Origin: Candidatus Poriferisocius sp. | GTDB taxonomy: Bacteria > Actinomycetota > Acidimicrobiia > Acidimicrobiales > Bin134 | Assembly: GCF_965219775.1 (NCBI RefSeq) | Contig: NZ_OZ244793.1 | Location: forward strand, 1,844,757 to 1,908,756 | Length of the DNA stretch: 64,000 bases | Reading direction: 5' to 3' | Notes under the pieces: generated by a model | The model's database searches: none | Told to the model about the DNA's origin: nothing | What the model saw: only the letters and a program-made list of their open reading frames with translations | Program-made: the position numbers and the translations under genes | Part shown: positions 22,298 through 48,102 of the stretch, in pieces | Numbering within the stretch: the first letter of the stretch is position 1 | Layout of the letters: the number at the start of each line of letters is the position of its first letter

Positions 22298-24043
22298 TCA
22301 TCGAGCGCCGCGCACCAGGCGTCCGGGGCGGGCGCCGGTGTCGGAGCCGTGGCTGCGGGTGACCTCCCCGGCCACCAGGGTGGCCACGTAGCCCACGGCT
22401 TCCTGGTCGAGGCGGCGACCCCCGGCGGGCAGGTCGTGGACCACCCTCGGCGAGCGCAGGGTCAACGCCTGGTGGTCGATCACGTTCACGTCGGCCCGCT
22501 TGCCCACCTCCAGGGTGCCCCGGTCGCCCAGCCCGTACAGGGCGGCGGTGTCGTGGGTCTGCTTCTTCACCACCCACTCCAGGGGGAGTTGCTCGCCCCG
22601 GCTGCGGTCGCGGGTCCAGTGGGTGAGCATGAAGGTGGGGATGGAGGCGTCGCAGATCATGCCGCAGTGGGCGCCCCCGTCGGACAGGCCCGACACCCCG
22701 GCGGGATGCAGGAGCTGCTCGCGAATGACGTCGTGGTTCTCCTCGAAGTAGTTGAACATGGGCAGCATCATCAGGGCGTGGCCGTCGTCCTCCAGGCACA
22801 GGTCGTAGAGCATCTCCATGGGTTCCACGCCCCGAGCCTCGGCCAGAGCCGCCACCGTGCGGTCACCGGTGGGCTCGTAGTCGGGCGGATCGCCGATCAC
22901 GTACAGCCGGTGGAGCATCCTGGCCACCAGGGCGGGCATCTGGTCGAACAGCACGTTGGGGTTGGGCGGCAGGTCGTCTTCGGCCAGGATGGCCTGGCGG
23001 ACCGCCGGGGTGCGGAGTTCGGCCACCAGCTCGTCGAAGGGCAGGTGGGCCCGGGAGACGAAGTTCGGGCGCTTGGCGAAGGCGTGATTGGTCTGCAGGC
23101 CGATCAGCATCCCGAACGGGCGGCCGGCGATCTGGGGATACACCCGGGCGCCCTCGTCGGTGGCCCGCAGGGACTCGTCCATCATCTCCCGCCACAGGTC
23201 GGGGGCCCCGTCCACCTGCAGGAGGGCGAACGACACCGGCACGTCGAAGCGGGCCGACAGCCGCCGCATCCAGTCCATTTCCTTGGGCGGGGCCACCAAG
23301 TCGAGCCCGGCGGCTCCGGCGGGGGCCAGCTCGAACACCCCGGCCCCGGCGTCGGCCAGGGCCCGGCCCAGCCCGAACAGCTCGTCCTCGGCGGCGAACG
23401 TGCCCGGCACCGGCTCGCCGTCGATGGCCCGGTGGCCCAGCGTGCGGGAGGTGGACACCCCCAGCGCCCCGGCCTCCAGGGCCTCCCGGCTTATGGCGTA
23501 CATGGCCTCGATGTCGGCGGGGGTGGCGGGCTCGTTGCGGGCCCCCCGCTCGCCCATCACGTAGCCCCGCACCGCCCCGTGGGCCACCTGGGTGGCCACG
23601 TCGATGGACAGGCGGCGCTCGTCGAGCACGTCCAGATACTCGGGGAAGGTCTCCCACCCCCACGAGATGCCCTCCGACAGGGCGGCGCCGGGGATGTCCT
23701 CCACCCCTTCCATGAGCTGGATGAGCCATTCCTCGGTGCCGGGCCGCACCGGGGCGAACCCCACCCCGCAGTTGCCCATGACCACGGTGGTCACCCCGTG
23801 GCCCGACGACGGCTGGAGCTTCTCGTCCCAGGTCACCTGGCCGTCGTAGTGGGTGTGGCAGTCCACGAAGCCCGGTGTCACCACCAGGCCGTCGGCGTCG
23901 ATGGTGGTGGCCGCTTCGGGGGCCGGGCCGCCGCTGCGGTCCACCACGGCCACCTTGCCGTCCTTGATGCCGATGTGGCCGGTGAACCGGTCGGCCCCGG
24001 TCCCGTCCACCACGGTGCCATTGGCAATCACCTTGTCCAGCAC
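22298..24043 (-). CDS. N-acyl-D-amino-acid deacylase (D-aminoacylase) family amidohydrolase
   Basis: 581 aa with IANGTVVDGTG...GFVDCHTHYDGQVTWD. GTG start at 24043, 7 nt after GGGGGAGG. Confidence 0.85.
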   Translation of the reverse strand: MLDKVIANGTVVDGTGADRFTGHIGIKDGKVAVVDRSGGPAPEAATTIDADGLVVTPGFVDCHTHYDGQVTWDEKLQPSSGHGVTTVVMGNCGVGFAPVRPGTEEWLIQLMEGVEDIPGAALSEGISWGWETFPEYLDVLDERRLSIDVATQVAHGAVRGYVMGERGARNEPATPADIEAMYAISREALEAGALGVSTSRTLGHRAIDGEPVPGTFAAEDELFGLGRALADAGAGVFELAPAGAAGLDLVAPPKEMDWMRRLSARFDVPVSFALLQVDGAPDLWREMMDESLRATDEGARVYPQIAGRPFGMLIGLQTNHAFAKRPNFVSRAHLPFDELVAELRTPAVRQAILAEDDLPPNPNVLFDQMPALVARMLHRLYVIGDPPDYEPTGDRTVAALAEARGVEPMEMLYDLCLEDDGHALMMLPMFNYFEENHDVIREQLLHPAGVSGLSDGGAHCGMICDASIPTFMLTHWTRDRSRGEQLPLEWVVKKQTHDTAALYGLGDRGTLEVGKRADVNVIDHQALTLRSPRVVHDLPAGGRRLDQEAVGYVATLVAGEVTRSHGSDTGARPGRLVRGAR

Positions 24044-24141: not shown

Positions 24142-25884
24142 TTAGTGGCCGTTGGTGGCCCCGGCCCGGAGCAGCTTGCCGGGAGTGGCCCCGGTGGACA
24201 CCCCGTGGCGGCGGGTCACCACGCCGCTCACCATGGTGGCCACGTACCCGGTGGCCTGCTGGTCGAACCGCTGTCCGCCGGCGGGCAGGTCGGCCACCAA
24301 CTTCGGCGGGTGCAGCGTGAGCCGGTCGTGGTCGATGATGTTCAGGTCGGCCTTCATGCCCGGCTCCAGGGTGCCCCGGTCGGTCAGGCCGAACAGCCGA
24401 GCGGTGTCACGGGACTGCTTCTGCACCACGTACTCCAGCGGAAGCCGCTCGCCCCGCCGGCGGTCGCGGGCCCAGAAGGTGAGCAGCCAGGTGGGCATGG
24501 AGGCGTCGCAGATGGCCCCGCAGTGGGCACCGCCGTCGGACAGCCCCGACACCCCCGAGGGGTGCAGGAACATCTCCCGCACGGCATCGGCGTTGCCGTC
24601 GCTGTAGTTGAGGAACGGGAACAACAACAGGGCCCGCCCGTCGTCCTCCAGCAGGAGTTCGTACAGCAGGTCTTCGGTGTCGCGCCCCTGGGCCTCGGCG
24701 ATGGCGGCCACCGACCGCTCCGGGCCGGGCTCGTAGTCGGGCGGGTCGCCCAGCACATAGATGCGTTGAAGCTGGGTGCCCATGTACTCGGCGAACGGGT
24801 TGGTGAACGAACTCGACTCGGCCAGGATGGCCGCCTTGCGCTCGGGTCGGCGGAGTTCGGCCACCAGCTCGGCCAGGGGCAGCTCGGCGATCTCGGCGAA
24901 GCTGGGGCGGCTGCTGAAGGCGTGGTTGGTCTGCAGCCCGATGAGCACGCCGTTGCAGCGGGGGGCCACCTGGGGGTGGAGTTGGGCGCCCTCGGCGGCG
25001 GCGTCGGCCGACAGATCCATGATCTCCCGCCACATCCCGGGGGCGGCGTCGATCTGCACCAGGGCGAAGGTGACCGGGCGGCCGGTGGCGGCCGACAGGC
25101 GGCGCATCCAGTCGACCTCCTTGGCCGGGGCGGCCAGGTCCTCGCCGACCACGCCGGCGGGGGCCAGCTCGTACAGGCCGTGGCCCACCTCGGCCAGGGC
25201 CTCGCCGATGCCGAACAACTCGTCCTCGGCGGCGAAAGTGCCGGGCACCGGTTCGCCGTCGATGGCTTTGTGGGCGATGGTGCGCGACGTGGAGAAGCCG
25301 AAGGCCCCGGCCCGCAGGGCGTCGGCCACGATCTCGCGCATCTGGGCGATGTCCTCGGGGTTGGCCGGTTCGTTGCGGGCGCCCCGCTCCCCCATCACGT
25401 AGGCCCGCACGGCGCCGTGGGGCACCTGGCAGCCGATGTCCATCGACAAGGGCTTGCGCTCCAGGGCGTCGAGGTACTCGGGGAAGGTCTCCCACTCCCA
25501 GGTGATGCCCTCCGAAAGGGCGGCGCCGGGGATGTCCTCCACCCCCTCCATGAGCTGGATGAGCCACTCCTCGGTGCCGGGTCGCACCGGGGCGAACCCC
25601 ACCCCGCAGTTGCCCATCATCACGGTGGTCACCCCGTGGTGGGCCGACGGCTCCAGCACCGGGTCCCAGGTCACCTGGCCGTCGTAGTGGGTGTGGCAGT
25701 CCACGAAGCCCGGCGTCACCACCAGGCCGTCGGCGTCGATGATCTCGTCGGCCCGGAGGTCGGGGTTGCCCCCGGCGTACACCCCGGAGATGCGGTCCCC
25801 GTCGATGGCCACGTCGCCCACGAACGGCTCACCCCCCGTCCCGTCCACGATCAAACCACCGGAGATCACCACGTCATGTGCCAT
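24142..25884 (-). CDS. N-acyl-D-amino-acid deacylase family amidohydrolase (tandem paralog)
   Basis: 580 aa, colinear with 22298..24043 along the full length (same GFVDCHTHYDGQVTWD and MGNCGVGFAPVRPGTEEWLIQLMEGVEDIPGAALSEGI blocks). Confidence 0.85.
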   Translation of the reverse strand: MAHDVVISGGLIVDGTGGEPFVGDVAIDGDRISGVYAGGNPDLRADEIIDADGLVVTPGFVDCHTHYDGQVTWDPVLEPSAHHGVTTVMMGNCGVGFAPVRPGTEEWLIQLMEGVEDIPGAALSEGITWEWETFPEYLDALERKPLSMDIGCQVPHGAVRAYVMGERGARNEPANPEDIAQMREIVADALRAGAFGFSTSRTIAHKAIDGEPVPGTFAAEDELFGIGEALAEVGHGLYELAPAGVVGEDLAAPAKEVDWMRRLSAATGRPVTFALVQIDAAPGMWREIMDLSADAAAEGAQLHPQVAPRCNGVLIGLQTNHAFSSRPSFAEIAELPLAELVAELRRPERKAAILAESSSFTNPFAEYMGTQLQRIYVLGDPPDYEPGPERSVAAIAEAQGRDTEDLLYELLLEDDGRALLLFPFLNYSDGNADAVREMFLHPSGVSGLSDGGAHCGAICDASMPTWLLTFWARDRRRGERLPLEYVVQKQSRDTARLFGLTDRGTLEPGMKADLNIIDHDRLTLHPPKLVADLPAGGQRFDQQATGYVATMVSGVVTRRHGVSTGATPGKLLRAGATNGH

Positions 25885-34535: not shown

Positions 34536-35750
34536 GTGAGCAGAACTGTTGGGAGCACTTCAGAGGCCACCCCCAGAGGCGCCGGGGCGGTGGTGTGGCC
34601 GGTGCCGGTGGACGTGGGTTCGTTGTCCGATGACCGGTTGCGGGACCGGTTGGGGGTGATCGGGCGGGCGGAGTCTTGTTTGTCGGCCATGAAGGCACAG
34701 ACGTTGGCCGAGTTGGCTCGTCGTCACAGTCCGGTGGAAGCAGGCAGGATCGCCCGGCAGGAAACCCGGTCGTCGAAGCGGGCCGCCCGCACCGAGGTGG
34801 AAACCGCAGGGCGCCTCGCCGGGCTGGCTGCCACTTCCGACGCGTTGGGTGCCGGGGTGATACCCGCCGGTCACGCCCGGTTGATCGCCCGGGCCGCATC
34901 CGAGGGGCCGATCGACGAGTCGTTGATGGTGCAAGCAGCCACCCACCAGGACTACGACACGTTCGCCCGGACCATGGCCCGCCACCAACACGAAGCCTCC
35001 GGTGACGACGGCCACGCCCTCCACGAACACAGACTCCAGAAGCGCAGTGCCCGGGTGTTCACCCGACCCGAGTCCGGCATGTTCGTGCTCTCCGCAGAGT
35101 TCGACCCGATCACCGGGGCCCACATCGACACCGTGTTGGCCGCCAAAGTACGTGAACTGTGGAACCAAGAAGACCCCAAAGCCCGGCGCAGTTCCCAACA
35201 GCGCACGGCCGACGCGTTGGCCGAGTTGATCCTCGAACCCGAAAAAGGCAAAACAGCAGGCACCGCCCTGTTGGTCGTCGCCGACTACGACGTCGTCAAC
35301 CAACAACTCACCGACGCCCGCCTCTCCGACGGGACCCCCATCCCCGCCGCCGAACTGGTCCGGTTGGCGTGTGACGCCGACATCCTGCCCGGCGTGTACC
35401 GGGCCGCCACCCAAGAAATGAACCTCGGCCGCAAACGCCGCACCGCCACCACCACCCAACGAGCCGCCCTCACCTACCGGGACCAACACTGCATCGGATG
35501 CGGCACCACCGCCCACCGATGCTTCGCCCACCACATCAAATTCTGGTCCGAAGGCGGCCCCACCGACCTCGCCAACCTCGCACTCGTCTGCAACGACTGC
35601 CACCACAACATCCACGACCACCACTGGACCGTCACCCACAACCCCCACACCAACCGGTGGCACACCCACCCCCCACCCGACCCCTTCCCCACCCACGGAA
35701 CCACCAACACCCCACCCCCACCCCAAACCAACCCCATACTCCGAAAATGA
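34536..35750 (+). CDS. DUF222-domain HNH endonuclease (REP13E12-like family)
   Basis: GTG start after GGGGAGGAGGGG. The helical DUF222 N-terminus (MKAQTLAELARR) and the HNH motif CIGCG...AHHIKFWSEGGPTDLANLALVCNDCHHNIH are typical of the actinobacterial family. Confidence 0.85.
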   Translation: MSRTVGSTSEATPRGAGAVVWPVPVDVGSLSDDRLRDRLGVIGRAESCLSAMKAQTLAELARRHSPVEAGRIARQETRSSKRAARTEVETAGRLAGLAATSDALGAGVIPAGHARLIARAASEGPIDESLMVQAATHQDYDTFARTMARHQHEASGDDGHALHEHRLQKRSARVFTRPESGMFVLSAEFDPITGAHIDTVLAAKVRELWNQEDPKARRSSQQRTADALAELILEPEKGKTAGTALLVVADYDVVNQQLTDARLSDGTPIPAAELVRLACDADILPGVYRAATQEMNLGRKRRTATTTQRAALTYRDQHCIGCGTTAHRCFAHHIKFWSEGGPTDLANLALVCNDCHHNIHDHHWTVTHNPHTNRWHTHPPPDPFPTHGTTNTPPPPQTNPILRK

Positions 35751-35754
35751 AGAA

Positions 35755-36444
35755 TCAGGGGCGCCAGGGTGGGGTGCGGGGGGGATCGAAGAGGAACTCG
35801 ACGGGGTCGCCGCGAATGGCGGCGAAGGCGTGGGTCAACCACCACTCGCTGTTGCGCATGCCCTCGGGCAGGTTGTCCGGTCCGTAGAACCCCACGGCTC
35901 GGCATTCCAGGGGGTGGGGGGTCAGCTCACCGCCCACCGCCCGGCACAGAAACACCAGGGAGTACATGGGCACGGTGGTGAACCCCCGGCGCAGGCCGTC
36001 GTGGATGGCGATGGGCCGCTCCACCTCGCACGCGATGCCGGTCTCCTCGGCCACCTCCTTCACCACGATCTCCGACGGGGAGTAGCCCACATCGGCCCAG
36101 CCGGTGGGATACAGCCACACCCCCGAGTCGGCCCGCTGCACCAGCAGGATCTCCCCGTCGTCGTTGCCCACCACCGCGCCCACGGCCACCTTGGGGGTCA
36201 CGTAACCGGGCACCCCGTCGCCCACCGACTTCATCCACTCGGCCACGAACCGGTCGGGCGTCCACCCGGCGCTCAGGGTGGCCGCGATGTCGGCGGCCAC
36301 GTGCAGCACCTCCTCGAAACGCTCCTGCTCGTAGCGGTTCTCCGTGAAGGCCAGTCCGGTGCGGGCGATGCCGGCCAGGGTCTCCGACCACCGCCGCAAG
36401 TCGTCGTGGCCCGCCATCGGCGCAGGCTCGCTGCTATCGGTCAT
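35755..36444 (-). CDS. NUDIX hydrolase with a Nudix N-terminal helical domain
   Basis: Nudix box GGELTPHPLE... and GxxxxxExxxxxxREVxEETG-like VVKEVAEETG. The N-terminal WSETLAGIARTGLAFTENRYEQERF also fits. The start is set to ATG 36444 because the ORF-track start at 36483 is TTG. Confidence 0.8.
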   Translation of the reverse strand: MTDSSEPAPMAGHDDLRRWSETLAGIARTGLAFTENRYEQERFEEVLHVAADIAATLSAGWTPDRFVAEWMKSVGDGVPGYVTPKVAVGAVVGNDDGEILLVQRADSGVWLYPTGWADVGYSPSEIVVKEVAEETGIACEVERPIAIHDGLRRGFTTVPMYSLVFLCRAVGGELTPHPLECRAVGFYGPDNLPEGMRNSEWWLTHAFAAIRGDPVEFLFDPPRTPPWRP

Positions 36445-36496
36445 GGTCGGGGCCGCCGGAACGACCCTTCCGGTGGCGGCCAAAAGCGCCGGTCAT

Positions 36497-38836
36497 TCAT
36501 CCCCGTATGGTGCAACTGTCGATGGCATGGTTCAGCGCCCGCTTGATCTCGCTGATGTAGTCGGGGTCGGTCACCTTCTCGCCCTGGGCGTCACGGAGGT
36601 AGTAGGCGTGGACCACGTCGCCGCCCAAGTCCTGCACCTTGGCGCTCAAGATGTCGAGATCGAGCTGGGACAGGGCACTGGTCACCCGGCTGAGCAGGCC
36701 GACGCGGGACTTGGTGGCCAACTCCACGATGGTGGCGGTGGACGACAGCTCGTTGTCCACGGTCAGCTTGGGGGGCACCACCGGCGGGGACGATTCGTTG
36801 ATGGCCGTCCCGTAGGCGTTGATGCGCTCGGTGAGCCGGGCCTCGATGGCCAACCGGCCAGCCAGAGCCTGCTCGACGTGGCCGGTGACCTGGGGCCAGT
36901 CGATGGGCAACCCCAGGATGCTCTCCACCTGGAACCGCTCCAAGGCCATCCCGTACTCGGAATGGGCCGCGGCCAACAGCACCCGCAGGCCGTTGAGGGC
37001 CAACACGCCGGCCACCCGGGAGAACATGCCGTGGCGGTCGGGGGCGAGCACCGTCAGGGTGTCGCCGTCGCCCAGCACGATGCGGCGGCCCACCTCCATC
37101 ATGAGGCGCTGTTCGGGAGTGGGGAAGCGGGAGGTGATCTCGTCGATGCTGCCCCCCTCGGCCACGTGGGCGCAGCGAGCCACCAACTCCTGCACCAGCC
37201 CCGACTTCCAGTTGCTCCACGCCGAGGGGCCGGTGGCCCGGGAATCGGCCTCGGTGAGCGCTCCCAACAGGCGCAGCGTGTCCACCGAGCGCACCTTGCG
37301 GGACACCTCGGCGATGGTGTCGGGATCCTCCAAGTCGCGCCGGGTGGCCACGTCGGGCAGCAGGAGATGATGCTCCACCAGGGCCACCAGCACATCCACA
37401 TCAGTGGGGGGAAAGCCCATGCGGTGGGTGATGTCGGACACCAACTCCATGCCCACCTCGGTGTGGTCGCCGGGATACCCCTTGCCGATGTCGTGGAGCC
37501 AAGCGCCTATCACCAACAGGTCGGGCCGATCCACCCGCTCCACCAGCTCGGCGGCCAACGCGGCGGCCTCGCACAGGTGCCGATCCACGGTGAACTGGTG
37601 GTAGGGGTTGCGTTGAGGCCGGCTGCGGGTGGGCTCCCACTCGGGCAGGATGCGAACGAACAGTTCCGACTGGTCAAGGGCCTCGATGGCGGGCAGGGCG
37701 GCCTTTCCGGCCAACAACAGGTCCACCAGCAACCCGCGGGCGGGGTCGGGCCACGGGTCGGGCATGGGGGCCATGTGTTCCCGGAGCTGATCCAGGCCCT
37801 CCCTGTCCATGCGCAATTGGTGGGTGGCCGCCGCTCGGGCAAAGCGCAGGGCGGTACAGGGATCGGTGAGGTCCGCTTCGGGATCGAGCACGGCCAGACC
37901 CCCGGCGGCGAACACCCCATCGCCGATGGCGGCCTCGGCGGGGGCGGCGCTGGTGCGCTTACGGCGCAGGCGGCGCTCATTGGCCGGTTCGGGCTGTTGC
38001 CACCTAAACCAGTACTCGTCGCTGATCCAGGATATGGACCGACCGGCGGCGGCCACGTCGGCCATCAGCACGTCGGCGTCGGCATACTCCAGCGCAGCGG
38101 CCACCGCGTCCTGATCCTCCAGTTGCAGGGTGTCGCCGGGGCGGCCGGTCACCCGGTGCAGTTCCACCCGAGCCGCCAGCAGCACCTCGTAGCCGTCGCG
38201 CAGCTTGCGCTTGTCGGCGTCGTCCACCGGGAATCCGGCGGCCTCGGCCCAGCGCAGGGCGTGTACGTCCCGCAACCCGCCCCGGCCCTCCTTCAGTTCG
38301 GGTGACACCTTGAAGGCCACCTCGCCGCTGTGGGCATGGCGGTCGGCCACCCGCGTGGCCATTTCCGGCAACCACTGCTGGGCCCGACGCCGCCACTGGT
38401 TGGCGGTGTAGTCGATCAGATCCTGGGTGAGGGCCTCGTCGCCCGCGATGTGGCGGGCCTCCAACAGCGATGTGGCGGTGTCCAGGTCGACCTTGGTCAG
38501 CTCCTTGGCCTCCTTGGGCGACCGCACCGAGTGCCCCAACTTGAGCCCCTCGTCCCACACCGGATACCAGAGCCGGGAGGCGATCTCGCTGATGTCGAGG
38601 CGATCCCGGTGCAGCAGTTGCACGTCGATGTCGCTCTGGGGGCTGAGCTCGGCCCGGCCGTAGCCCCCCACCGCCACCAGCGCCACCCCGTCGTGATCCT
38701 CCACCTCGGCGTCGAAGATGGCCTGGAGCCATTCATCCACGTGACGGGACAGGGATCGGCACAACACCGTGCCCGACAGGCCGCTCTCGGCCAGAAACTG
38801 TTCCCGGTTCAGCTTGCCCGCGGTCGTCGGTGCCAT
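36497..38836 (-). CDS. glnD: [protein-PII] uridylyltransferase / uridylyl-removing enzyme
   Basis: 779 aa with a nucleotidyltransferase domain (GGYGRAELSPQSDIDV), an HD domain (LHDIGKG) and two C-terminal ACT-like domains. Confidence 0.9.
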   Translation of the reverse strand: MAPTTAGKLNREQFLAESGLSGTVLCRSLSRHVDEWLQAIFDAEVEDHDGVALVAVGGYGRAELSPQSDIDVQLLHRDRLDISEIASRLWYPVWDEGLKLGHSVRSPKEAKELTKVDLDTATSLLEARHIAGDEALTQDLIDYTANQWRRRAQQWLPEMATRVADRHAHSGEVAFKVSPELKEGRGGLRDVHALRWAEAAGFPVDDADKRKLRDGYEVLLAARVELHRVTGRPGDTLQLEDQDAVAAALEYADADVLMADVAAAGRSISWISDEYWFRWQQPEPANERRLRRKRTSAAPAEAAIGDGVFAAGGLAVLDPEADLTDPCTALRFARAAATHQLRMDREGLDQLREHMAPMPDPWPDPARGLLVDLLLAGKAALPAIEALDQSELFVRILPEWEPTRSRPQRNPYHQFTVDRHLCEAAALAAELVERVDRPDLLVIGAWLHDIGKGYPGDHTEVGMELVSDITHRMGFPPTDVDVLVALVEHHLLLPDVATRRDLEDPDTIAEVSRKVRSVDTLRLLGALTEADSRATGPSAWSNWKSGLVQELVARCAHVAEGGSIDEITSRFPTPEQRLMMEVGRRIVLGDGDTLTVLAPDRHGMFSRVAGVLALNGLRVLLAAAHSEYGMALERFQVESILGLPIDWPQVTGHVEQALAGRLAIEARLTERINAYGTAINESSPPVVPPKLTVDNELSSTATIVELATKSRVGLLSRVTSALSQLDLDILSAKVQDLGGDVVHAYYLRDAQGEKVTDPDYISEIKRALNHAIDSCTIRG

Positions 38837-38882
38837 GGGCGCGACCCTAGTGGCTCTTGCCGGTGGTCGGAGCGGTGACCAC

Positions 38883-38919
38883 GGCCCGCCGCGCCATTAC
38901 CGCCGCAGAGCGGCGGGCC
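38883..38919 (-). other. 10-bp GC hairpin in the 99-bp amt-glnD spacer (possible attenuator or processing site)
   Basis: GGCCCGCCGC (38883-92) pairs with GCGGCGGGCC (38910-19). The loop is 17 nt and there is no U-tract. Confidence 0.3.
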
Positions 38920-38935
38920 TGCTGGTCAGGGGCAA

Positions 38936-40129
38936 CTAGTGGTTGTAGGCCAACTCGGCGTGCTGGGTCTGATCAAGGCCGGTGACCTCTTCCTCCACGG
39001 TGGCCCGCAGCCCCATGGTGGCCTTGAGCACCCGGGCGATCACGTAGGTGACCACGAAGCTGTAGGCCATCACCGCCACGATGGATATGACCTGGTTCAA
39101 CAACAGCTCCCCGCCGCCGAAGAAGACACCGTTGATGAAGTCGCCGCCGGGAACCGCACCGGCGTCGGCGAAGAATCCGATGAGGACCCCGCCGATGATG
39201 CCGCCGAACATGTGGACGCCGACCACATCCAAGCTGTCGTCGTAGTTGAAGTGTCGCTTGAGGCTGATGGCCAGAAAGCACAGCACGCCGGCGGCCGCGC
39301 CAATGACGATGGCCGCCAAGGCGCCCACGAACCCGGCGGCCGGGGTGATGGCCACCAGACCGGCAACCACCCCGGACGCAATGCCCAGTGAGGTGGGCTT
39401 GCCCCCGCGAATGATCTCGATCACCATCCAGCCGCACATGCCCGCGGCTGCGGCCAAGAATGTCGTCAGGAACGCGTGGGCCGCCGCCCCATCGGCAGCC
39501 AGGGCCGACCCGGCGTTGAAGCCGAACCAGCCGAACCACAGGATGCCGGCACCCAACATCACGAACGGCAGGTTGTGGGGCAGATCCACGTCGGCCGGCC
39601 AACCCCGCCGGGGGCCGAGGACCATCACGAGGGCCAGAGCGGCAATGCCGGCGTTGATGTGGATGGCCGTTCCTCCGGCGAAGTCGTGGGCGGGCAGCTC
39701 CTTGATCCAACCCTCTCCCGCGTAGATCCAGTAGACCACTGGGGAATACACCAGGAACGACCACAGCGGGACGAAGACGGCCCAGGCGCTGAACTTCATG
39801 CGGGCGGCCACCGCCCCGGAGATCAGCGCCGGGGTGATGACGGCAAAGGTCATCCCGAACACGAACTCCCGCTTGGACACCTCGTCGTCGAGGCCCTCCA
39901 GGAATAGGGCGTCGAAATCGCCGAACAGGGGGAAACTCCAGTTACCGGAGGCGAACCCGTAGCCGAAGAGCACCCACAAGATGGGAACCACCCCCAGGCA
40001 GTAGAGGTTCATATTCAGCATGTTGAGCATGTTCTTGGCCCCGACCATGCCGCCGTAGAACAGCGCCAAGCCCGGCACCATGAACATCACCAAAGCCGCG
40101 CACACCAGAACCCATGCGGTATCGCCCAT
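38936..40129 (-). CDS. amt: ammonium transporter
   Basis: 397-aa, 11-TM Amt/MEP family protein with DFAGGTAIHINAG and GVHMFGGIIG motifs. Confidence 0.9.
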   Translation of the reverse strand: MGDTAWVLVCAALVMFMVPGLALFYGGMVGAKNMLNMLNMNLYCLGVVPILWVLFGYGFASGNWSFPLFGDFDALFLEGLDDEVSKREFVFGMTFAVITPALISGAVAARMKFSAWAVFVPLWSFLVYSPVVYWIYAGEGWIKELPAHDFAGGTAIHINAGIAALALVMVLGPRRGWPADVDLPHNLPFVMLGAGILWFGWFGFNAGSALAADGAAAHAFLTTFLAAAAGMCGWMVIEIIRGGKPTSLGIASGVVAGLVAITPAAGFVGALAAIVIGAAAGVLCFLAISLKRHFNYDDSLDVVGVHMFGGIIGGVLIGFFADAGAVPGGDFINGVFFGGGELLLNQVISIVAVMAYSFVVTYVIARVLKATMGLRATVEEEVTGLDQTQHAELAYNH

Positions 40130-40207
40130 GTCTCCTCCTTCGATGAACCCTTGGTTCCATCAGAGTTGGCTCTTGGTGGGCCAGCTTAGTGGACCCCGGC
40201 CCTCCGG

Positions 40208-40678
40208 TTACGGGGACTGCGTCTCGGTGGCGGCCCGGCGGCGGCGATGGACGAACGCCTTGGCCGCCCCCCACTCCAGCCCCGGCTGGTGCAGATCGGG
40301 GTGCAGATCGGCAAAGGTGGCCGGGGCCAGGTCGTAGACGTCCTCGGGGAAGCGGGTGGCGGCAAAATGGTCCCGCGCCACCGGGGCAACCCCAGCCTGC
40401 CGCAGCACCTCGGTGGGAAACCGGACCGCCCGGCGGACCACGGCGAGGGGATTCTCCCGCTGCTGATCGATGTCGGCGGCCAACAGGTCGGCCACCTCGT
40501 CGCCCACAGCGGCGGCCGCGGCCTGCCCGGCGGCCTGCGCGGCCCGCTGGATCTCCGGTGACACATCACCCAGGCGCCGCTGCACGGCGGCCACCACCCA
40601 ATCGGGCATCGCCCGGCGGATGCCGTCAGCTAGCTCTTGCCCATGGGCCGCCAGTTGCTCCTCTGGGGTCGCCGTCAA
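40208..40678 (-). CDS. hypothetical protein (helical, Ala-rich)
   Basis: 156-aa ORF with plausible composition. I recognise no family. Confidence 0.5.
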   Translation of the reverse strand: MTATPEEQLAAHGQELADGIRRAMPDWVVAAVQRRLGDVSPEIQRAAQAAGQAAAAAVGDEVADLLAADIDQQRENPLAVVRRAVRFPTEVLRQAGVAPVARDHFAATRFPEDVYDLAPATFADLHPDLHQPGLEWGAAKAFVHRRRRAATETQSP

Positions 40679-40743
40679 CTTGGCCGCCGCTCAGAGGCCA
40701 CGGTGCTCACCGGGCGTCCGCTCACCGGGAGCAATCGTCGCCT

Positions 40744-41520
40744 TCACAAGGCGGCGTTGAGGTTGCCCGAGCGCAGGCCCTGCAGATCGACGGTGACGTC
40801 GCGGTACCCGGCCTGATGCAGGGCGGCCACCACGTCCTCCCGCTGGGCCACCACCGCCTCCAACCGGTCGAGGGGCACCTCGATGCGGGCCAGGGTGCCG
40901 TGGTGGCGCACCCGCAGCTCGCCGAACCCCAGGGCCCGCAGGGCGGCCTCGGCATCGGCCACCGAGGCCAGCGCCCCCAGGGTCACCGGAGTTCCGTAGG
41001 GGATCCGGGAGGCCAAACAGGGTGCGGCCGGCTTGTCCCAGGTGCGCAACCCGTACCGCCGGGACCACTGGCGCACATCGGCCTTGGAGAATCCGGCATC
41101 CACCAAGGGGAAGCGAGCTCCCCGTTCGGCGGCGGCTCTCTGGCCGGGTCGGTGATCCACCAGATCGTCGGTGTTCACACCCAGCAACACGGTGGCCGAT
41201 CGAGCCTCCGCCACCGGGGCCAAGGCGTCCATGAGGGCGTCCTTGCACCAGTAGCAGCGGTCCCCGTCGTTGGCCACGTAGGCGGCCCGCTCCATTTCCT
41301 GGGTGTGCACCTCGCGCCACACCAGGCCCAACTCCCCGGCCAGGGCCGCGCAGTCCTGCCTCTCGGCCGGGGCCAGCGACGGGGACACCGCGGTGACCGC
41401 CTCGGCCCGGTCGCCCAGCTCGTCGTAGGCCACCCAGGCCAACAGCGACGAATCGACACCCCCGCTGAAGGCCACCACCACCCGATCCAGCCCCGCCAGG
41501 TCGCGCCGCAAACGCTCCAT
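40744..41520 (-). CDS. larE: PP-loop ATP pyrophosphatase, LarE-like sulfur transferase family
   Basis: C-terminal 258 aa of ORF 40744..43965, from MERLRRDLAGLDRVVVAFSGGVDSS (SGGxDS PP-loop) ...CLASRIPYGT. The family call is moderate and the symbol is tentative. Confidence 0.7.
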   Translation of the reverse strand: MERLRRDLAGLDRVVVAFSGGVDSSLLAWVAYDELGDRAEAVTAVSPSLAPAERQDCAALAGELGLVWREVHTQEMERAAYVANDGDRCYWCKDALMDALAPVAEARSATVLLGVNTDDLVDHRPGQRAAAERGARFPLVDAGFSKADVRQWSRRYGLRTWDKPAAPCLASRIPYGTPVTLGALASVADAEAALRALGFGELRVRHHGTLARIEVPLDRLEAVVAQREDVVAALHQAGYRDVTVDLQGLRSGNLNAAL

Positions 41521-41622
41521 GTCGCCCACCGCACCATTGTGGCCCCCGAACCGATGCCGAAGAAATGCAGAGCCCCCTCGGGATCGAGCCAGGTGTGGTC
41601 GCCACAACCTAAGGTAGCCGGC

Positions 41623-42906
41623 GTGGGCAAGACGGCAGCGGTGCTCGGGCTCATGGGCTGCATCCTGTTGGCCTGGGCCGCGTCGGCTTCCACCCAGCCC
41701 GACACCGGCCCTGACACCGCCTCCCAAGCGCTGGAGGGAACCATCCGGTTGGGCTTCGACCAGTTCTTCGCCGACGTGGAAATCGTGGCCACCACCACCG
41801 ACGGCGCCGAAGTGGGGCGGGCCACCACCGACGAGAGCGGCCGGTGGTCGATCGTGGTGCCCGCACCGGGCGACTACGCGGTCACCATCACCACCGACAC
41901 GCTCCCCGAGGGGCTTTCGCTGCGCGAGGGCCAGGACGCCACCGTGGTGGCCACCCTCGAACCGGACCAACCCCGGCGGGCGGTGGTCTTTGCCGTGGGG
42001 GGCGCCCCCCAGGGGACCCCGTTCGGCGAGCGTTTCGCCCAGACCCTGTTCAGCGGGTTCAAGTTCGGGCTGATCATCGCCATGAGCGCCATCGGACTGT
42101 CGCTCATCTACGGCACCACCGGGTTGGTCAACTTCGCCCACGGCGAGCTGGTCACCTTCGGGGCGGTGATCGCCTGGTACTTCAACAGCTCCTGGGGTGA
42201 TTTGAACCTGATCTGGGCCGCGGTGTTGACGCTGGTGGTCTGCGGGACACTTGGCGCGGGGTTGGAGTCGGGGCTGTTCCGCCCGCTGCGGGCCCGGAAG
42301 CTGGGTATCTTCCAGCTCGTGGTGATCACCATCGGCATGTCGCTGGCCGGTCGCCAGCTCATTCAGCTCTTCTTCGGCGCGGAGCCGCTGCCCTACGCCG
42401 ACTACCAGGTGCAGGACCGCTGGGAGTTCGGCCCGTGGTCGGTCACTCCCCGGGAGCTGGCCACCATCGGGGTGATCGTGGTGGTGCTGATCGCCATCGG
42501 GGTGATGTTCCAGAAGACGCGATTCGGCAAGGCCACCCGGGCGGTGGCCGACAACGCCGAGCTGGCCGCGGTGTCGGGCATCAACGTCAACCGGGTGATC
42601 CTGGTGGTGTGGATCCTGGGGGCCGCCCTGGCCGGGCTGGGTGGCGTGTTCCAGGGGCTCGACACCGACATCGACCCCTTCCTGGGCTTCCAGCTCTTGT
42701 TGTTGATCTTCGCCGGGGTCGAGCTGGGGGGGTTGGGCACCGCCTACGGTGCCCTGGTCGGGTCGCTCATCATCGGCGTGTCCACCGAGCTGAGCACGCT
42801 GTGGATCTCGCCCGAACTCAAGTTCGTGGTCCCGCTGGCGGTGCTCATCGTGGTGCTGCTGGTGCGACCGCAGGGCCTGTTCGGCCTGAGGGAACGGGTG
42901 GGTTAG
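41623..42906 (+). CDS. livH: branched-chain amino-acid ABC permease (LivH family) with a ~135-aa N-terminal secreted extension
   Basis: From ORF 40189..42906. GTG 41623 follows AAGGTAG. Signal-peptide-like AAVLGLMGCILLAWAASAS is followed by a beta-rich segment (GRWSIVVPAPGDYAVTITTD), then the canonical LivH core from FAQTLFSGFKFGLIIAMSAIGLSLIYGTTGLVNFAHGE. Confidence 0.8.
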   Translation: MGKTAAVLGLMGCILLAWAASASTQPDTGPDTASQALEGTIRLGFDQFFADVEIVATTTDGAEVGRATTDESGRWSIVVPAPGDYAVTITTDTLPEGLSLREGQDATVVATLEPDQPRRAVVFAVGGAPQGTPFGERFAQTLFSGFKFGLIIAMSAIGLSLIYGTTGLVNFAHGELVTFGAVIAWYFNSSWGDLNLIWAAVLTLVVCGTLGAGLESGLFRPLRARKLGIFQLVVITIGMSLAGRQLIQLFFGAEPLPYADYQVQDRWEFGPWSVTPRELATIGVIVVVLIAIGVMFQKTRFGKATRAVADNAELAAVSGINVNRVILVVWILGAALAGLGGVFQGLDTDIDPFLGFQLLLLIFAGVELGGLGTAYGALVGSLIIGVSTELSTLWISPELKFVVPLAVLIVVLLVRPQGLFGLRERVG

Positions 42907-43914
42907 GTGGAGTTCGACATCATCTTCGGCAACGCCGCCCGAGCGGCCTTCGGACCCGAGGCGGTGATTCTGGCCTTGGCCGCCACCGGCTTGAACGTCC
43001 ACTTCGGCTTCACCGGGCTGCTCAACTTCGGCCAGGTGGGGTTCATGCTGCTCGGGGCCTACGGCACCAGCGTCTCGGTGGCCACCTTCGGGTGGTCGCT
43101 GTGGTTGGGGATCCCCGTCGGCCTGTTGGTGGCCGTGGCCCTGGCGGTGGCCCTGGGCTTTCCCACCCTGCGGCTGCAGGCGGTGCTGTTCGCCATCGTC
43201 ACCATTGCGGCCGCCGAGATCATCCGCATCCTCATCGGCTCCACCGACGCCATCGGCCTGACCGGCGGGCCGCTCAGCATCAGCTTCGACGCCGGTTCGT
43301 TCTTCGATCTGAATCCCTACGCTCACGGACCCCAGGATCGCTACGGGTTCGGCACCTTCTCGTTCACCGGCCAGCAGATGTGGGTGATCACCGTGGGTTG
43401 GGTGCTGGTGGCGCTGGCCAGCCTGGTGGTGTTCCTGATCATGCGCAGCCCCTGGGGTCGGGTGGTCAAGTCCATCCGGGAGGAGCCGGACGCGGCCCGC
43501 AGCCTGGGCAAGAACGTGTTCTTGTACCGGATGCAGGCGTTGATCATCGGCGGGTTCTTCGGCGGGCTGGCCGGCGTGGTCGACGCCATCAAGACGTCGG
43601 GCGCCGATCCCAACGGGTTTCGGCCCCAGGTGACCTTCTTCACCTACACCGCCCTGCTGTTGGGCGGGGCCGCCACGTATCTGGGTCCGGTGCTGGGGGC
43701 CATCTTGTTCTGGTTCCTGCGGGAGTGGATCGAATCGTTCCTGCGTCAGCTCACCGCCGAGGCCTGGCTGCCCGATGTCGTGGCCAACTTCCTGGAGGGC
43801 AGCGAGGGCATCATCAGCGTGTGCATGGTGGGCTTGACCTTGGTGCTGCTCATGTTGTTCCGGCCTCAGGGCATCACCGGCAACCGAACGGAAATGCAGC
43901 TCGATGCCCCCTGA
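42907..43914 (+). CDS. livM: branched-chain amino-acid ABC permease (LivM family)
   Basis: 335-aa polytopic protein with a GTG start immediately after the livH stop. Confidence 0.85.
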   Translation: MEFDIIFGNAARAAFGPEAVILALAATGLNVHFGFTGLLNFGQVGFMLLGAYGTSVSVATFGWSLWLGIPVGLLVAVALAVALGFPTLRLQAVLFAIVTIAAAEIIRILIGSTDAIGLTGGPLSISFDAGSFFDLNPYAHGPQDRYGFGTFSFTGQQMWVITVGWVLVALASLVVFLIMRSPWGRVVKSIREEPDAARSLGKNVFLYRMQALIIGGFFGGLAGVVDAIKTSGADPNGFRPQVTFFTYTALLLGGAATYLGPVLGAILFWFLREWIESFLRQLTAEAWLPDVVANFLEGSEGIISVCMVGLTLVLLMLFRPQGITGNRTEMQLDAP

Positions 43915-44833
43915 CGCGCCCCCGAGCACCATCACGCCGCCCACCGACACCGAGGTGGAGCCCATCTTGACCGTTCACCCGGTGCCGGGAGTGGCCAAGC
44001 CCGACCCCATCTTGGTGATCGAAGGGCTGCAGCGGAGCTTCGGCGGGCTGGTGGCGGTGGACGTGGACCATCTCGAAATCGAGCGGGGCATCGTGACCTC
44101 GTTGATCGGCCCCAACGGGGCGGGCAAAACCACCCTGTTCAACTTGCTGACCGGCTTCGACCGGGCCGACCGAGGTCGGTGGAGCTTCGACGGCCGACCG
44201 GTCACGTCGCCCGCCCCCGATCAACTGGCCCGCCAGGGCATGATCCGCACCTTCCAGCTCACCAAGTCGTTGGCCAAGCTCCCGGTCATCCAGAACGTGC
44301 TACTGGGCGCCCCCAACCAGGTGGGCGAGCGGCTGTGGGCCGCCCCGTTTCGATCGGCCTGGCAGGCCCAGGAGCAGGCCAACATCCACAAGGCCGAGCA
44401 ACTGTTGGATCGGTTCAACCTGGCCCACATGCGCGACGAGTTGGCCGGCACCCTCTCGGGAGGCCAGCGCAAGCTGCTGGAGGTGGCCCGCGCCCTGATG
44501 ACCGACCCCAAGCTGATCATGCTGGATGAGCCCATGGCCGGGGTGAACCCTGCCCTGGCCCAGTCGCTGATGGGCCATGTCACCGCCCTGGCCGTCGACG
44601 GGGTGAGCGTGGTTTTCATCGAGCACGACATGGACGTGGTGACCGGCATCAGCGACTGGGTGGTGGTGCTGGCCCAGGGGAAGGTGATCGCCGAAGGCGG
44701 GCCATGGAAGGTCATCCACGACGACGTGGTGATCGACGCCTACCTGGGGCGGCGCGACCGGGCGACTCAGAACGGCGGCGAGGCCCCTCCGGTCACCGGA
44801 CCGGACGCCGTGGACGAGGGGAGCGGTGCGTGA
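43904..44833 (+). CDS. livG: branched-chain amino-acid ABC ATP-binding protein (LivG family)
   Basis: Walker A GPNGAGKTT, LSGGQRKLLEVARAL, and a C-terminal LivG-type extension. It overlaps the livM end. Confidence 0.85.
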   Translation: MPPDAPPSTITPPTDTEVEPILTVHPVPGVAKPDPILVIEGLQRSFGGLVAVDVDHLEIERGIVTSLIGPNGAGKTTLFNLLTGFDRADRGRWSFDGRPVTSPAPDQLARQGMIRTFQLTKSLAKLPVIQNVLLGAPNQVGERLWAAPFRSAWQAQEQANIHKAEQLLDRFNLAHMRDELAGTLSGGQRKLLEVARALMTDPKLIMLDEPMAGVNPALAQSLMGHVTALAVDGVSVVFIEHDMDVVTGISDWVVVLAQGKVIAEGGPWKVIHDDVVIDAYLGRRDRATQNGGEAPPVTGPDAVDEGSGA

Positions 44834-45570
44834 ACGGCGACGCCAGCCCCCGTTCCTTGTTGCAGGCCCACAACGTGGTGGCCGGCTACCTGCCCGGCAT
44901 CGACATCTTGAACGGCTGCTCGGTGGAGCTGTTCCCCAACGAGATCATCGGGGTGATCGGCCCCAACGGGGCGGGCAAATCCACCCTGTTGAAGGCGATC
45001 TTCGGCTTGGTCGACGTTCGCTCGGGCACCATTCGTCTGGGGGATGACGACATCACCGGCCAGAGCCCCCATGACCTGGTGACCCAGGGCGTCAGCTACG
45101 TGCCGCAAACCCAGAACGTGTTCCCCCGGCTGTCCATCCGGGAGAACCTGGAGATGGGGGTGTTCCAGGCCCCCAAGATGTTCGAGGAGCGGTTCGCCCA
45201 GGTCGCCGAGCTCTTTCCCCTGTTGGCCGAGCGGAGCAGCCAACGAGCCGACGGGCTCTCCGGGGGCGAGCGCCAGATGGTGGCCATCGGTCGGGCGCTC
45301 ATGATGGACCCCAAGGTGGTGCTGTTGGACGAGCCCTCGGCCGGGCTGTCCCCCGCCTATCAGGACCAGGTGTTCGAGCGGATCACCCACATCACCGGCC
45401 TGGGGGTGTCGCTGATCGTGGTGGAGCAGAACGCCCGACGCTGCTTGCAGATTTGTGACCGGGGGTACGTGCTGGACCAAGGCACCAACGCCCACACCGG
45501 CACCGGCGATGACCTGCTGAGCGATCCTCAGGTGATCCAGCTCTACTTGGGCACCCTGGCCCGAGCTTGA
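44830..45570 (+). CDS. livF: branched-chain amino-acid ABC ATP-binding protein (LivF family)
   Basis: GTG 44830 overlaps the livG stop (GTGA). GPNGAGKST, LSGGERQMVAIGRAL, and C-terminal DPQVIQLYLG. Confidence 0.85.
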   Translation: MNGDASPRSLLQAHNVVAGYLPGIDILNGCSVELFPNEIIGVIGPNGAGKSTLLKAIFGLVDVRSGTIRLGDDDITGQSPHDLVTQGVSYVPQTQNVFPRLSIRENLEMGVFQAPKMFEERFAQVAELFPLLAERSSQRADGLSGGERQMVAIGRALMMDPKVVLLDEPSAGLSPAYQDQVFERITHITGLGVSLIVVEQNARRCLQICDRGYVLDQGTNAHTGTGDDLLSDPQVIQLYLGTLARA

Positions 45571-45573
45571 GCA

Positions 45574-45603
45574 GCGGCGTCAAACCGGACGCCGCCGCTT
45601 TCG
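45574..45603 (+). terminator. intrinsic terminator-like hairpin after livF
   Basis: GCGGCGTC-aaaccg-GACGCCGC (8-bp stem) is followed by cgcTTTcgg. Confidence 0.45.
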
Positions 45604-45633
45604 GCGACGCCCGGCCCGCGCCACGAGATGGGA

Positions 45634-48102
45634 TTACGAATCCAGGTCCACGTCTTGGCTGTCGATGGGTACCAGGGCGCCGTCTTGGAATTGGGCGATG
45701 ATGTAACGGCCCCAGGTGGGGTCGCCCACCGCGTCGAGGTCCAACGGACCCGACACCCCGTCGTAATCGATGTCGGCCCCGTCGGCCAACAACCCGGCGC
45801 ACTGCTCATAAGTCGTGCACTTGGTGCCCCCACCAGTCACCGCCTGCACCTGATTGATGATCTCGGTGCCGTCGGTGGAACCCGCCGCCAACGCCGCCAA
45901 CGCCATCACCACCACACAGTCGTACGCCTGACCACCGTAAATCACGTTCCCGTCGGTGATCTCCGCCAACCGGTCGCTGAACTCCGCACCACCGGCCGCG
46001 CCGATCAACTTCATCCCGTCCAACACATTCGCATCCGACGGATCCACCGCAGCAGCCAGATTCGGGTCGAAAATACCATCGGCCCCGTACATCACCGACG
46101 CAGGAACCCCCGCCTCCAACGCACCCCGGATGATCTGCGCGCCCTCGCTGAACGAGATCAACACCACCGCATCGGCACCCATCGCCGACACCTCACCCAA
46201 CGTCGCATCGAAACTCGTCTCATCCGGCGAATACAAGATGACCTGCGAAGCCACCCCGAAGTCATCCAGACCCGACTCCATCAAACCGGCCAACGCACTC
46301 CCGTAATCATCGGCCCGGGCCACAATCGCCACATTCGTCGCCCCATCAGCAGCCACCACATTCGCGATGATCGGCGACACCGCCTCATCCGGCGGCACCG
46401 TCCGGAAGTAATACCCCGCGTTGTCCTGCGTCGAAAACGACGGCGACGTGTTCGACGGCGAACACTGCGGCACCCGCGCGTCATACAACGTCTGAATGAA
46501 CGACTGCGAAATACCCGACGCCGCCGCACCCACAATCACATGAGCACCCTCACCCAACAAACGGTTCACCGCCTCCACCGCAACATCAGGATCCGTACCC
46601 GTATCACCCGTCAACAACGACACCGCACCACCAGCAGCCTGAATATCCTCAACCGCCAACCGGGCACCCTCAACCATCGGCGGCGCCAAAAACGCCAACG
46701 CACCCGTCTCCGGCATCACCCGACCAATCACCAACTCCGGCTGCTCACCCGAAGCGGCGCCGTCGCCCGGATCCTCGTCCATGGCTCCGAGATTGACGTC
46801 TTGGCTGTCGATGGGTACCAGGGCGCCGTCTTGGAATTGGGCGATGATGTAACGGCCCCAGGTGGGGTCGCCCACCGCGTCGAGGTCCAACGGACCCGAC
46901 ACCCCGTCGTAATCGATGTCGGCCCCGTCGGCCAACAACCCGGCGCACTGCTCATAAGTCGTGCACTTGGTGCCCCCACCAGTCACCGCCTGCACCTGAT
47001 TGATGATCTCGGTGCCGTCGGTGGAACCCGCCGCCAACGCCGCCAACGCCATCACCACCACACAGTCGTACGCCTGACCACCGTAAATCACGTTCCCGTC
47101 GGTGATCTCCGCCAACCGGTCGCTGAACTCCGCACCACCGGCCGCGCCGATCAACTTCATCCCGTCCAACACATTCGCATCCGACGGATCCACCGCAGCA
47201 GCCAGATTCGGGTCGAAAATACCATCGGCCCCGTACATCACCGACGCAGGAACCCCCGCCTCCAACGCACCCCGGATGATCTGCGCGCCCTCGCTGAACG
47301 AGATCAACACCACCGCATCGGCACCCATCGCCGACACCTCACCCAACGTCGCATCGAAACTCGTCTCATCCGGCGAATACAAGATGACCTGCGAAGCCAC
47401 CCCGAAGTCATCCAGACCCGACTCCATCAAACCGGCCAACGCACTCCCGTAATCATCGGCCCGGGCCACAATCGCCACATTCGTCGCCCCATCAGCAGCC
47501 ACCACATTCGCGATGATCGGCGACACCGCCTCATCCGGCGGCACCGTCCGGAAGTAATACCCCGCGTTGTCCTGCGTCGAAAACGACGGCGACGTGTTCG
47601 ACGGCGAACACTGCGGCACCCGCGCGTCATACAACGTCTGAATGAACGACTGCGAAATACCCGACGCCGCCGCACCCACAATCACATGAGCACCCTCACC
47701 CAACAAACGGTTCACCGCCTCCACCGCAACATCAGGATCCGTACCCGTATCACCCGTCAACAACGACACCGCACCACCAGCAGCCTGAATATCCTCAACC
47801 GCCAACCGGGCACCCTCAACCATCGGCGGCGCCAAAAACGCCAACGCACCCGTCTCCGGCATCACCCGACCAATCACCAACTCCACATCACCAGCCGGCG
47901 CGGGAGCGGGGGCGGCGGTCTCGTCCGGTTCGGGCGCGGCCGTGGCATCGGCGGTGGGCTGGGCATCGGCCCCGTCGGGCTGATCGTCGTCGTCGTTCCC
48001 ACAGGCGGTGGCCACCAGGGCCAGAACCGCCAGACCGGCCAGCATCCGCAGCCAGAACTTGGACATCGTCTTGCCCTTTGCCGTGTTCGTTGCCGTAGTC
48101 AT
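45634..48102 (-). CDS. LivK-like (type I periplasmic binding fold) substrate-binding lipoprotein containing two identical binding-domain copies
   Basis: ORF 45634..48201. Likely start is ATG 48102 (GGAGG 10 nt upstream) or ATG 48066. Lipobox LVATAC. The 363-aa block ELVIGRVMPETGALAFL...ALVPIDSQDV occurs twice, joined by NLGAMDEDPGDGAASGEQP. Confidence 0.8.
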   Translation of the reverse strand: MTTATNTAKGKTMSKFWLRMLAGLAVLALVATACGNDDDDQPDGADAQPTADATAAPEPDETAAPAPAPAGDVELVIGRVMPETGALAFLAPPMVEGARLAVEDIQAAGGAVSLLTGDTGTDPDVAVEAVNRLLGEGAHVIVGAAASGISQSFIQTLYDARVPQCSPSNTSPSFSTQDNAGYYFRTVPPDEAVSPIIANVVAADGATNVAIVARADDYGSALAGLMESGLDDFGVASQVILYSPDETSFDATLGEVSAMGADAVVLISFSEGAQIIRGALEAGVPASVMYGADGIFDPNLAAAVDPSDANVLDGMKLIGAAGGAEFSDRLAEITDGNVIYGGQAYDCVVVMALAALAAGSTDGTEIINQVQAVTGGGTKCTTYEQCAGLLADGADIDYDGVSGPLDLDAVGDPTWGRYIIAQFQDGALVPIDSQDVNLGAMDEDPGDGAASGEQPELVIGRVMPETGALAFLAPPMVEGARLAVEDIQAAGGAVSLLTGDTGTDPDVAVEAVNRLLGEGAHVIVGAAASGISQSFIQTLYDARVPQCSPSNTSPSFSTQDNAGYYFRTVPPDEAVSPIIANVVAADGATNVAIVARADDYGSALAGLMESGLDDFGVASQVILYSPDETSFDATLGEVSAMGADAVVLISFSEGAQIIRGALEAGVPASVMYGADGIFDPNLAAAVDPSDANVLDGMKLIGAAGGAEFSDRLAEITDGNVIYGGQAYDCVVVMALAALAAGSTDGTEIINQVQAVTGGGTKCTTYEQCAGLLADGADIDYDGVSGPLDLDAVGDPTWGRYIIAQFQDGALVPIDSQDVDLDS
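45650..46738. repeat. copy 1 of the 1089-bp direct repeat (period 1146 bp)
   Basis: Identical to 46796..47884 wherever I compared. The boundaries were read at nucleotide level. Translations in three ORF-track frames (+ and -) are letter-identical between copies (for example 45956..46306 = 47102..47452 and 46281..46535 = 47427..47681). Confidence 0.9.
46796..47884. repeat. copy 2 of the 1089-bp direct repeat
   Basis: See copy 1. The copies are separated by a unique 57-bp linker (46739..46795). Confidence 0.9.

Follow-up and report, generated by a model that had tools for sequence, protein, structure and literature searches.

Concerted evolution by gene conversion between paralogues is known in bacteria, for example from tufA/tufB and from rRNA operons. 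In GlnPQ of Lactococcus lactis and other Gram-positives, two tandem substrate-binding domains are joined by a linker of 14 amino acids (aa) and act largely independently (PMC8025302). Periscope proteins are surface proteins whose tandem domain repeats are identical at the DNA level (PMC8201768). The gene described here has traits of all three, and lies in a stretch of 64,000 nucleotides (nt) from Candidatus Poriferisocius sp. (contig NZ_OZ244793.1, positions 1,844,757 to 1,908,756 of the forward strand), the whole of which is referred to as the window. It encodes a lipoprotein with two substrate-binding domains, D1 and D2, whose coding sequences are identical. We consider it probable that recombination within the gene overwrote D1 with D2, as an intragenic gene conversion that has gone to completion, and infer both the recombination mechanism and the direction of transfer from sequence comparison. 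The gene is laid out as follows.

45634..48066, minus strand: coding sequence of the two-domain substrate-binding lipoprotein, 810 aa and stop, with a stop-free translation.
48102, minus strand: in-frame upstream ATG, an alternative start that would give 822 aa.
48001..48066, minus strand: signal peptide and lipobox, residues 1-22, read from the translation, MSKFWLRMLAGLAVLALVATAC.
47884..48000, minus strand: acidic Pro/Ala-rich tether of 39 aa, residues 23-61, outside the repeat except for its last base.
46796..47884, minus strand: repeat copy encoding D1, codons 62-424 at 47883-46795, equal to 45650-46738.
46794-46738, minus strand: linker NLGAMDEDPGDGAASGEQP of 19 aa, residues 425-443, with the unique spacer at 46739..46795.
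45650..46738, minus strand: repeat copy encoding D2, codons 444-806 at 46737-45649, the presumed donor.
45648-45634, minus strand: tail DLDS and stop, residues 807-810, read from the translation.

By direct string comparison, segments 45650-46738 and 46796-47884 are equal at 1089 of 1089 nt, without a mismatch and at a period of 1146 nt, and the identity breaks off sharply at either end. An exact repeat of this length cannot be due to chance. The pair is the sole 100% repeat returned by a self-BLAST of the window, within which the 57-nt spacer (46739-46795) occurs only once. The original prediction, made from the letters of the window, had reported two copies without visible divergence and proposed a blastn of the window against itself as a check; the full alignment and the self-BLAST both bear this out. 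Its anatomy of two identical type I binding domains in one lipoprotein, joined in frame by 19 aa, likewise agrees with the translation and with Pfam. The two domains are of 363 aa each and identical in protein, Peripla_BP_6 (PF13458) matched in two stretches with 197.5 bits against a gathering cutoff of 31.7, and ANF_receptor also gave two matches.

The 810-aa protein is identical to WP_420639008.1 (P0121 in our protein set), annotated as ‘ABC transporter substrate-binding protein [Candidatus Poriferisocius sp.]’, while an exact-protein look-up found no record of the 822-aa version. The lipoprotein call comes from reading the sequence and from the alignment of homologues. By eye, the N-terminus carries K3 and R7, a hydrophobic core and the lipobox (LAGLAVLALVATA-C22 / MSKFWLRMLAGLAVLALVATA-C22, V-A-T-A-C), and the predicted lipidated residue, Cys22 directly after LVATA, is invariant in 14 homologues. 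A plus-strand open reading frame (ORF) of 837 aa over the same region gives an Arg/His-rich reading and is presumably an antisense artefact that stems from the high G+C content.

The two-domain layout was found to recur in a search space of 5.8 billion proteins, clustered at 90% identity. A further 47 clusters, of 781-820 aa, span the whole query with the same layout. In all 47 the two domains are only 50.6-70.5% identical in aa, and identity of 100% was seen solely in the window protein and P0001. Among contigs taken from one genome per species, the pair is fused in frame in 32 loci (L002-L029, L043, L059, L066 and L068), of which 15 belong to Acidimicrobiia, several of them named Candidatus Poriferisocius, and 17 to Tepidiformaceae or other Chloroflexota. 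From their isolate names and the genus name, most of the 32 genomes appear to be sponge metagenome-assembled genomes (MAGs), and the occurrence in two phyla suggests transfer between phyla within the sponge microbiome.

The linker is shared with these relatives. In the eight closest genes it measures 19 aa in seven and 20 aa in the remaining one (L007), and its first two residues are N-L (D-L in one) and its last two Q-P (H-P in one), as in the window. Global alignment of the 57-nt spacer with the 57 nt upstream of D1 and with the 57 nt downstream of D2 revealed no likeness (scores at or below 0), and derivation of the linker from a flank was rejected on that ground. Comparison with the orthologous locus in related genomes, another check put forward with the prediction, found a diverged two-domain gene, with synteny kept where it was checked. 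In a relative with a circular 3.88-Mb contig (L076) the gene order is DUF1330, a chlorite-dismutase-like gene, the two-domain binding protein, convergent livF-livG-livM-livH, amt, glnD and NUDIX, which is the neighbourhood of the window save for one extra single-domain binding-protein gene in L076. On the strength of the linker match, the spacer unlike its flanks and this neighbourhood, the two-domain gene is judged to be old and that of the window to be an orthologue of a diverged D1-linker-D2 gene, as far as sequence comparison goes. The linker of the window is thereby a natural, ancestral one. NcoI (CCATGG), BamHI (GGATCC) and GGCGCC sites do lie within its 57 nt; in the window such hexamers are found 0.55-1.1 times per kb, and its source is an uncultured MAG, so that an engineered linker was set aside and the sites were taken as chance.

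Several observations touch on how the architecture came about and varies. In another Candidatus Poriferisocius sp. (OZ242341.1; L034, 7928-12443) the site that the fused gene holds in other species is taken up by three single-domain paralogues in a row, all with a signal peptide and lipobox of their own. This suggests a fusion of neighbouring paralogues as the origin of the two-domain gene. P0028 and P0046 apparently have the two domain types in swapped order. Multi-domain LivK-type proteins are also often encountered in metagenomic data. Two matched stretches occur in several of the best 150 cluster representatives, many carry a fusion to another type of binding protein, and one protein of 1943 aa contains five LivK-type stretches. 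The fused proteins P0051, P0112-P0120 and P0154 include the latter, along with fusions that join SBP_bac_3 to a LivK-type domain (Ilumatobacter) or an NMT1-like to a LivK-type domain (~770 aa).

The direction of the replacement was read from comparisons with the six closest proteins (P0002-P0007). The domain of the window is 79-82% identical in aa to their D2 and 66-69% to their D1, with nucleotide values of ~75% and ~68%, and D2 is the nearer by 12-15 points in every third of the domain. At 50 diagnostic positions that are fixed between D1 and D2, the window domain agrees with D2 in 39 cases and with D1 in 6, and has some other residue in the remaining 5. The six D1-like states are concentrated at residues 163-265, and three of them (Q201, N237 and V265) are common to all outgroup domains and so ancestral. 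A mosaic domain with a D1-derived centre was rejected, given these three ancestral states and the closeness to D2 in each third. Judged by sequence, both copies are of D2 type over their full length, which points to a replacement of D1 by D2.

Partial versions of such a replacement can be identified in relatives, where the D1 and D2 of one gene resemble each other most at alignment columns 85-306. In L006 (OZ246892.1) D1 is 96.8% identical to its own D2 in these columns, compared with 91.4% to the D1 of other genomes. Identity at its third codon positions amounts to 95.9% there and to 55.6% elsewhere, and the permutation p value of 0.0005 rests on a run of 28 consecutive matching variable sites. 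L028 (NZ_OZ242338.1) is 94.1% identical over the same columns, with 90.5% at third positions against 55.6% elsewhere (p = 0.005). By permutation, the other six relatives showed no significant D1/D2 tract. D1/D2 conversion thus operates in the two-domain gene family, and the window allele is the end point of a process that is partly visible in L006 and L028.

A second contig carries the same gene, with one amino-acid change, which falls in the tether. This contig of 17 kb (ENA ERZ25072258, ‘ctg6382_2.77x_l’; L001) shares 98.5% identity with the window over 12 kb and represents another strain from another sample. It also has two copies, each 100% identical to those of the window, and its neighbourhood matches that of the window and L076 as set out above. 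The differences in the tether are at 47894, 47905 and 47992. Between window and L001 the following tract is free of differences.

43888..47893: zero-difference tract of 4006 nt, covering livG, livF and both repeat copies.

The tract begins close to the start of livG and extends 10 nt beyond the repeat. With a flank divergence of ~1.4%, ~57 differences would be expected in it (~40 with the repeat counted a single time); apart from the tract, no identical stretch between the two is longer than 632 nt. Window and L001 share this segment through recent descent or recombination, and the tract could have come in by recent recombination or reflect a gene-specific sweep. Further contigs were searched for in metagenomes: a 32-nt linker pattern had 0 matches in a JGI metagenome scan, and a protein-guided scan gave nothing closer than 43%-identical relatives.

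The proposed course of events would start from an ancestral two-domain, lipid-anchored binding protein of a HAAT-family (LivHMGF-type) importer in a sponge-associated member of the Acidimicrobiia. Recombination between the paralogous domain segments of one gene would have replaced the whole of D1 with the D2 sequence, the most likely route being repeated tracts, each of which would raise identity and favour the next until homology ends. The signal peptide, tether, 19-aa linker and C-terminal tail would have been left as ancestral. Since the copies differ at 0 of 1089 sites, the event would be recent or continually renewed. As in concerted evolution, identity is 100% within the window against ~75% (nt) to the orthologous D2, the units have diverged in sister lineages (the 47 clusters), and the orthologous linker and synteny were not homogenised. 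The original prediction had offered gene conversion, a very recent duplication or an assembly artefact as possible causes, and the D2-type copies, the old diverged architecture and the partial tracts in relatives speak for the first.

Some points weigh against intragenic conversion. The identity run ends within 1-2 nt of the limits of homology (at ‘ELVIG’ at the start and ‘SQDV’ at the end), and a single tract would need both of its end-points within ~11-15 shared nt, which favours several events or a duplication plus deletion. In the neighbour-joining tree the window domain joins the D2 clade with a bootstrap of only 42%, for which reason we relied on the diagnostic sites and segment identities. 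The copy number and the identity rest on two assemblies, possibly from the same pipeline, and because window and L001 are identical over 4 kb they witness the structure, not two separate conversion events. Two-step unequal crossing-over would lead to the same end product, by a tandem duplication of linker and D2 via ‘SQDV’ followed by a deletion of D1 and linker via ‘ELVIG’. The ends of the identity do fall at short stretches shared by D1 and D2, the expected place of microhomology-mediated junctions, and the apparent swap of domain order in P0028 and P0046 suggests that unequal exchanges occur in the family. However, this route needs two rare events, its three-domain intermediate was found in 0 of 74 loci, and the partial internal tracts in relatives are a signature of conversion and not of duplication or deletion of units; we regard it as unlikely.

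It is very unlikely that the exact copy was produced by the assembler from a true genome with a diverged D1 or only one domain. Assemblers are notoriously prone to error at exact kilobase repeats, and the coverage of L001 is only 2.77x by its contig name, yet L001 has the same structure in another sample and strain (1.5% flank divergence), and both linker/repeat junctions are present in both assemblies. In the relatives D1 and D2 are ~74% identical in nt, a distance too great for collapse or polishing to have made them identical. Long-read assemblies, with reads that would span the 2.2 kb, are presumably indicated by the contig names (ctgN_cov x_l/c) and by the circular contigs of several megabases. 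An exact intragenic repeat of a kilobase can thus be genuine and need not be a collapse or expansion. Most improbable of all is a very recent de novo tandem duplication of a single-domain gene with a newly made linker, even though zero divergence would fit a fresh duplication and single-domain paralogues exist in related genomes. At a period of 1146, a simple tandem duplication should leave no fewer than 1146 positions identical, whereas 1089 were observed, with a spacer that has no parent in the flanks. The length and ends of that spacer are those of the linker of the closest orthologues, whose own domains are 66-70% identical, in a neighbourhood that is kept where checked. De novo duplication is largely refuted by these data, and intragenic conversion of D1 by D2 is the preferred reading.

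Compared with the systems described at the outset, the closest functional analogue is GlnPQ, by analogy of architecture. As there, two complete binding domains sit on one polypeptide beside the membrane with a short flexible linker (19 aa in the window), and the disordered linker and low predicted template modelling score (pTM) of the window protein point to independent domains. Unlike those of the window, the GlnPQ domains are of type II (SBP_bac_3), fused to the permease and of different specificities; the window protein has no type II domains and no fusion to a transmembrane domain, its identical type I domains being encoded in a separate gene on the opposite strand and anchored by a lipobox. 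The likeness to concerted evolution of the tufA/tufB type lies in units that are identical in one genome and 66-70% identical (protein) in the closest sister lineages, in homogenisation that halts at the end of homology and in partial tracts in relatives. The units differ in being two domains of one ORF, 57 nt apart, and not separate genes. With periscope proteins the gene shares a cell-surface product with whole-domain repeats that are DNA-identical, although those repeats are many small stalk domains in strain-variable number, while the window protein has two large ligand-binding domains and two copies in both strains (two strains only); the protein search likewise yielded no single-domain allele of >70% identity. 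Its relation to LivJ/LivK-type substrate-binding proteins (cluster B, type I; HAAT, TC 3.A.1.4) is seen in the same Pfam family (Peripla_BP_6), a bilobed fold and LivH/M/G/F-type neighbours, from which it differs by having two domains in one lipoprotein and ~20% identity to solved structures. LivJ/LivK proper (NCBIfam PRK15404) matched with 101.2 bits against a cutoff of 477, and by this sequence comparison the protein should not be filed as LivK.

In the AlphaFold2 (AF2) model, two bilobed type I domains are well folded, with a predicted local distance difference test (pLDDT) of ~85-95 in both and a pTM of 0.51. A helix covers residues 3-17. For residues 15-59 (tether) and 428-441 (linker) pLDDT stays under 50, so that tether and linker are predicted to be disordered, with the domains as two beads on a flexible string. 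Foldseek gave TM-scores of up to 0.82, in keeping with the type I fold, at ~20% identity to Thermotoga LivK (3td9) and a Leu-bound Brucella protein (4n0q); Atu2422 and a SAR11 pyroglutamate binder were further nearest solved structures. None of the structure matches was a solved chain covering both domains. The ligand class is probably amino-acid-like. Actinobacteria are generally single-membraned, and the same is assumed of this bacterium. Two independent Venus-flytrap domains on flexible tethers would hand the ligand to the LivHM permease. Three motifs distinguish the two domains in relatives.

ARxDDWG in D1, ARADDYG in D2.
FASNSYDC in D1, YGGQAYDC in D2.
GPDGMYD in D1, GSDGLFD in D2.

These motifs probably correspond to pocket residues of LivJ/LivK, and in alignment the Tyr of ARADDYG falls on a conserved Tyr in the Leu-bound protein 4n0q. 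As read from the sequences, the conversion probably removed a distinct D1-type site and doubled the D2-type one, leaving two equal sites.

The transporter genes beside the binding-protein gene are given below.

41629..42906, plus strand: livH/urtB-like permease gene (Pfam BPD_transp_2), whose ORF opens at 40189; the start is that of the L001 gene call.
42907..43914, plus strand: livM-like permease gene (Pfam BPD_transp_2, NCBIfam).
43904..44833, plus strand: livG-like ATPase gene (Pfam ABC_tran, NCBIfam).
44830..45570, plus strand: livF-like ATPase gene (Pfam ABC_tran, NCBIfam), ending 64 nt from the stop of the convergent binding-protein gene.

The two permease and two ATPase genes of a LivH/M and LivG/F set are thus present at 41629-45570, with BPD_transp_2 and ABC_tran each matched twice. 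The lipoprotein had been predicted to adjoin livHMGF genes. Liv-type genes do lie alongside, but the binding-protein gene is on the minus strand and convergent with them, not co-directional, an arrangement that is also present in L001 and L076. All matches to the NCBIfam Liv and Urt models, LivH/UrtB among them, were under their cutoffs, and naming the ligand of the transporter was dropped for that reason. An ammonium transporter, a GlnD uridylyltransferase and a weak NAD-synthase-like ORF are located at 35700-41600 (L001 10928-16708, L076 16731-22445), and these nitrogen-regulation neighbours are a hint that the importer serves nitrogen acquisition. Region 39700-41200 is hypervariable between window and L001, with 87, 49 and 42 differences per 500 nt against ~5 elsewhere, and holds a minus-strand ORF (40691-41605) without a Pfam match. 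The N-terminal extension of the livH ORF (40189-42906) lies in this region and is probably spurious; the N-terminal part of LivH has a weak CarboxypepD_reg match. Elsewhere in the window, two adjacent Amidohydro_3 genes (22298-24043 and 24142-25884, both minus strand) are 77% identical over 1575 nt; in contrast to the 100% repeat, this pair is a tandem duplication of the usual kind, with diverged copies.

Neither gene conversion nor the tandem arrangement of binding domains is new, and the window gene is a clean case, from nature, of a familiar process; it does not constitute a novel type of system. In limited searches of the literature we came across no account of tandem type I (Peripla_BP_6) binding lipoproteins or of this protein family, and those on intragenic conversion of tandem domains and on Candidatus Poriferisocius likewise found nothing on the family. 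Tandem type I binding lipoproteins are nonetheless common in sequence databases. The tandem architecture with its designed-looking linker had been thought unusual, a view that holds in part: the architecture is kept in 32 species-level genomes of two phyla, and the linker is the ancestral one.

The complete homogenisation could also be adaptive, an idea that we regard as unlikely. Intragenic recombination would then act as a fast switch between ‘two specificities’ and a ‘double dose of one specificity’, homologous recombination would have carried the D2-D2 allele from one co-existing strain to another, and 43888-47893 would be the footprint of a gene-specific sweep. If so, two perfect direct repeats of 1.1 kb, an ideal substrate for deletion, would persist in two strains through selection for both.

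The gene provides a clean and datable natural case of whole-domain conversion within a single bacterial ORF, accompanied by an outgroup series that runs from unconverted through partly to fully converted. It also draws attention to lipid-anchored tandem type I binding proteins, which sponge symbionts of two phyla have in common. In GlnPQ, the contribution of a second binding site has been approached only with engineered constructs. If the ligands of D1 and D2 differ in the relatives, the D2-D2 allele would be a natural test of the second binding site in an ATP-binding cassette (ABC) importer.

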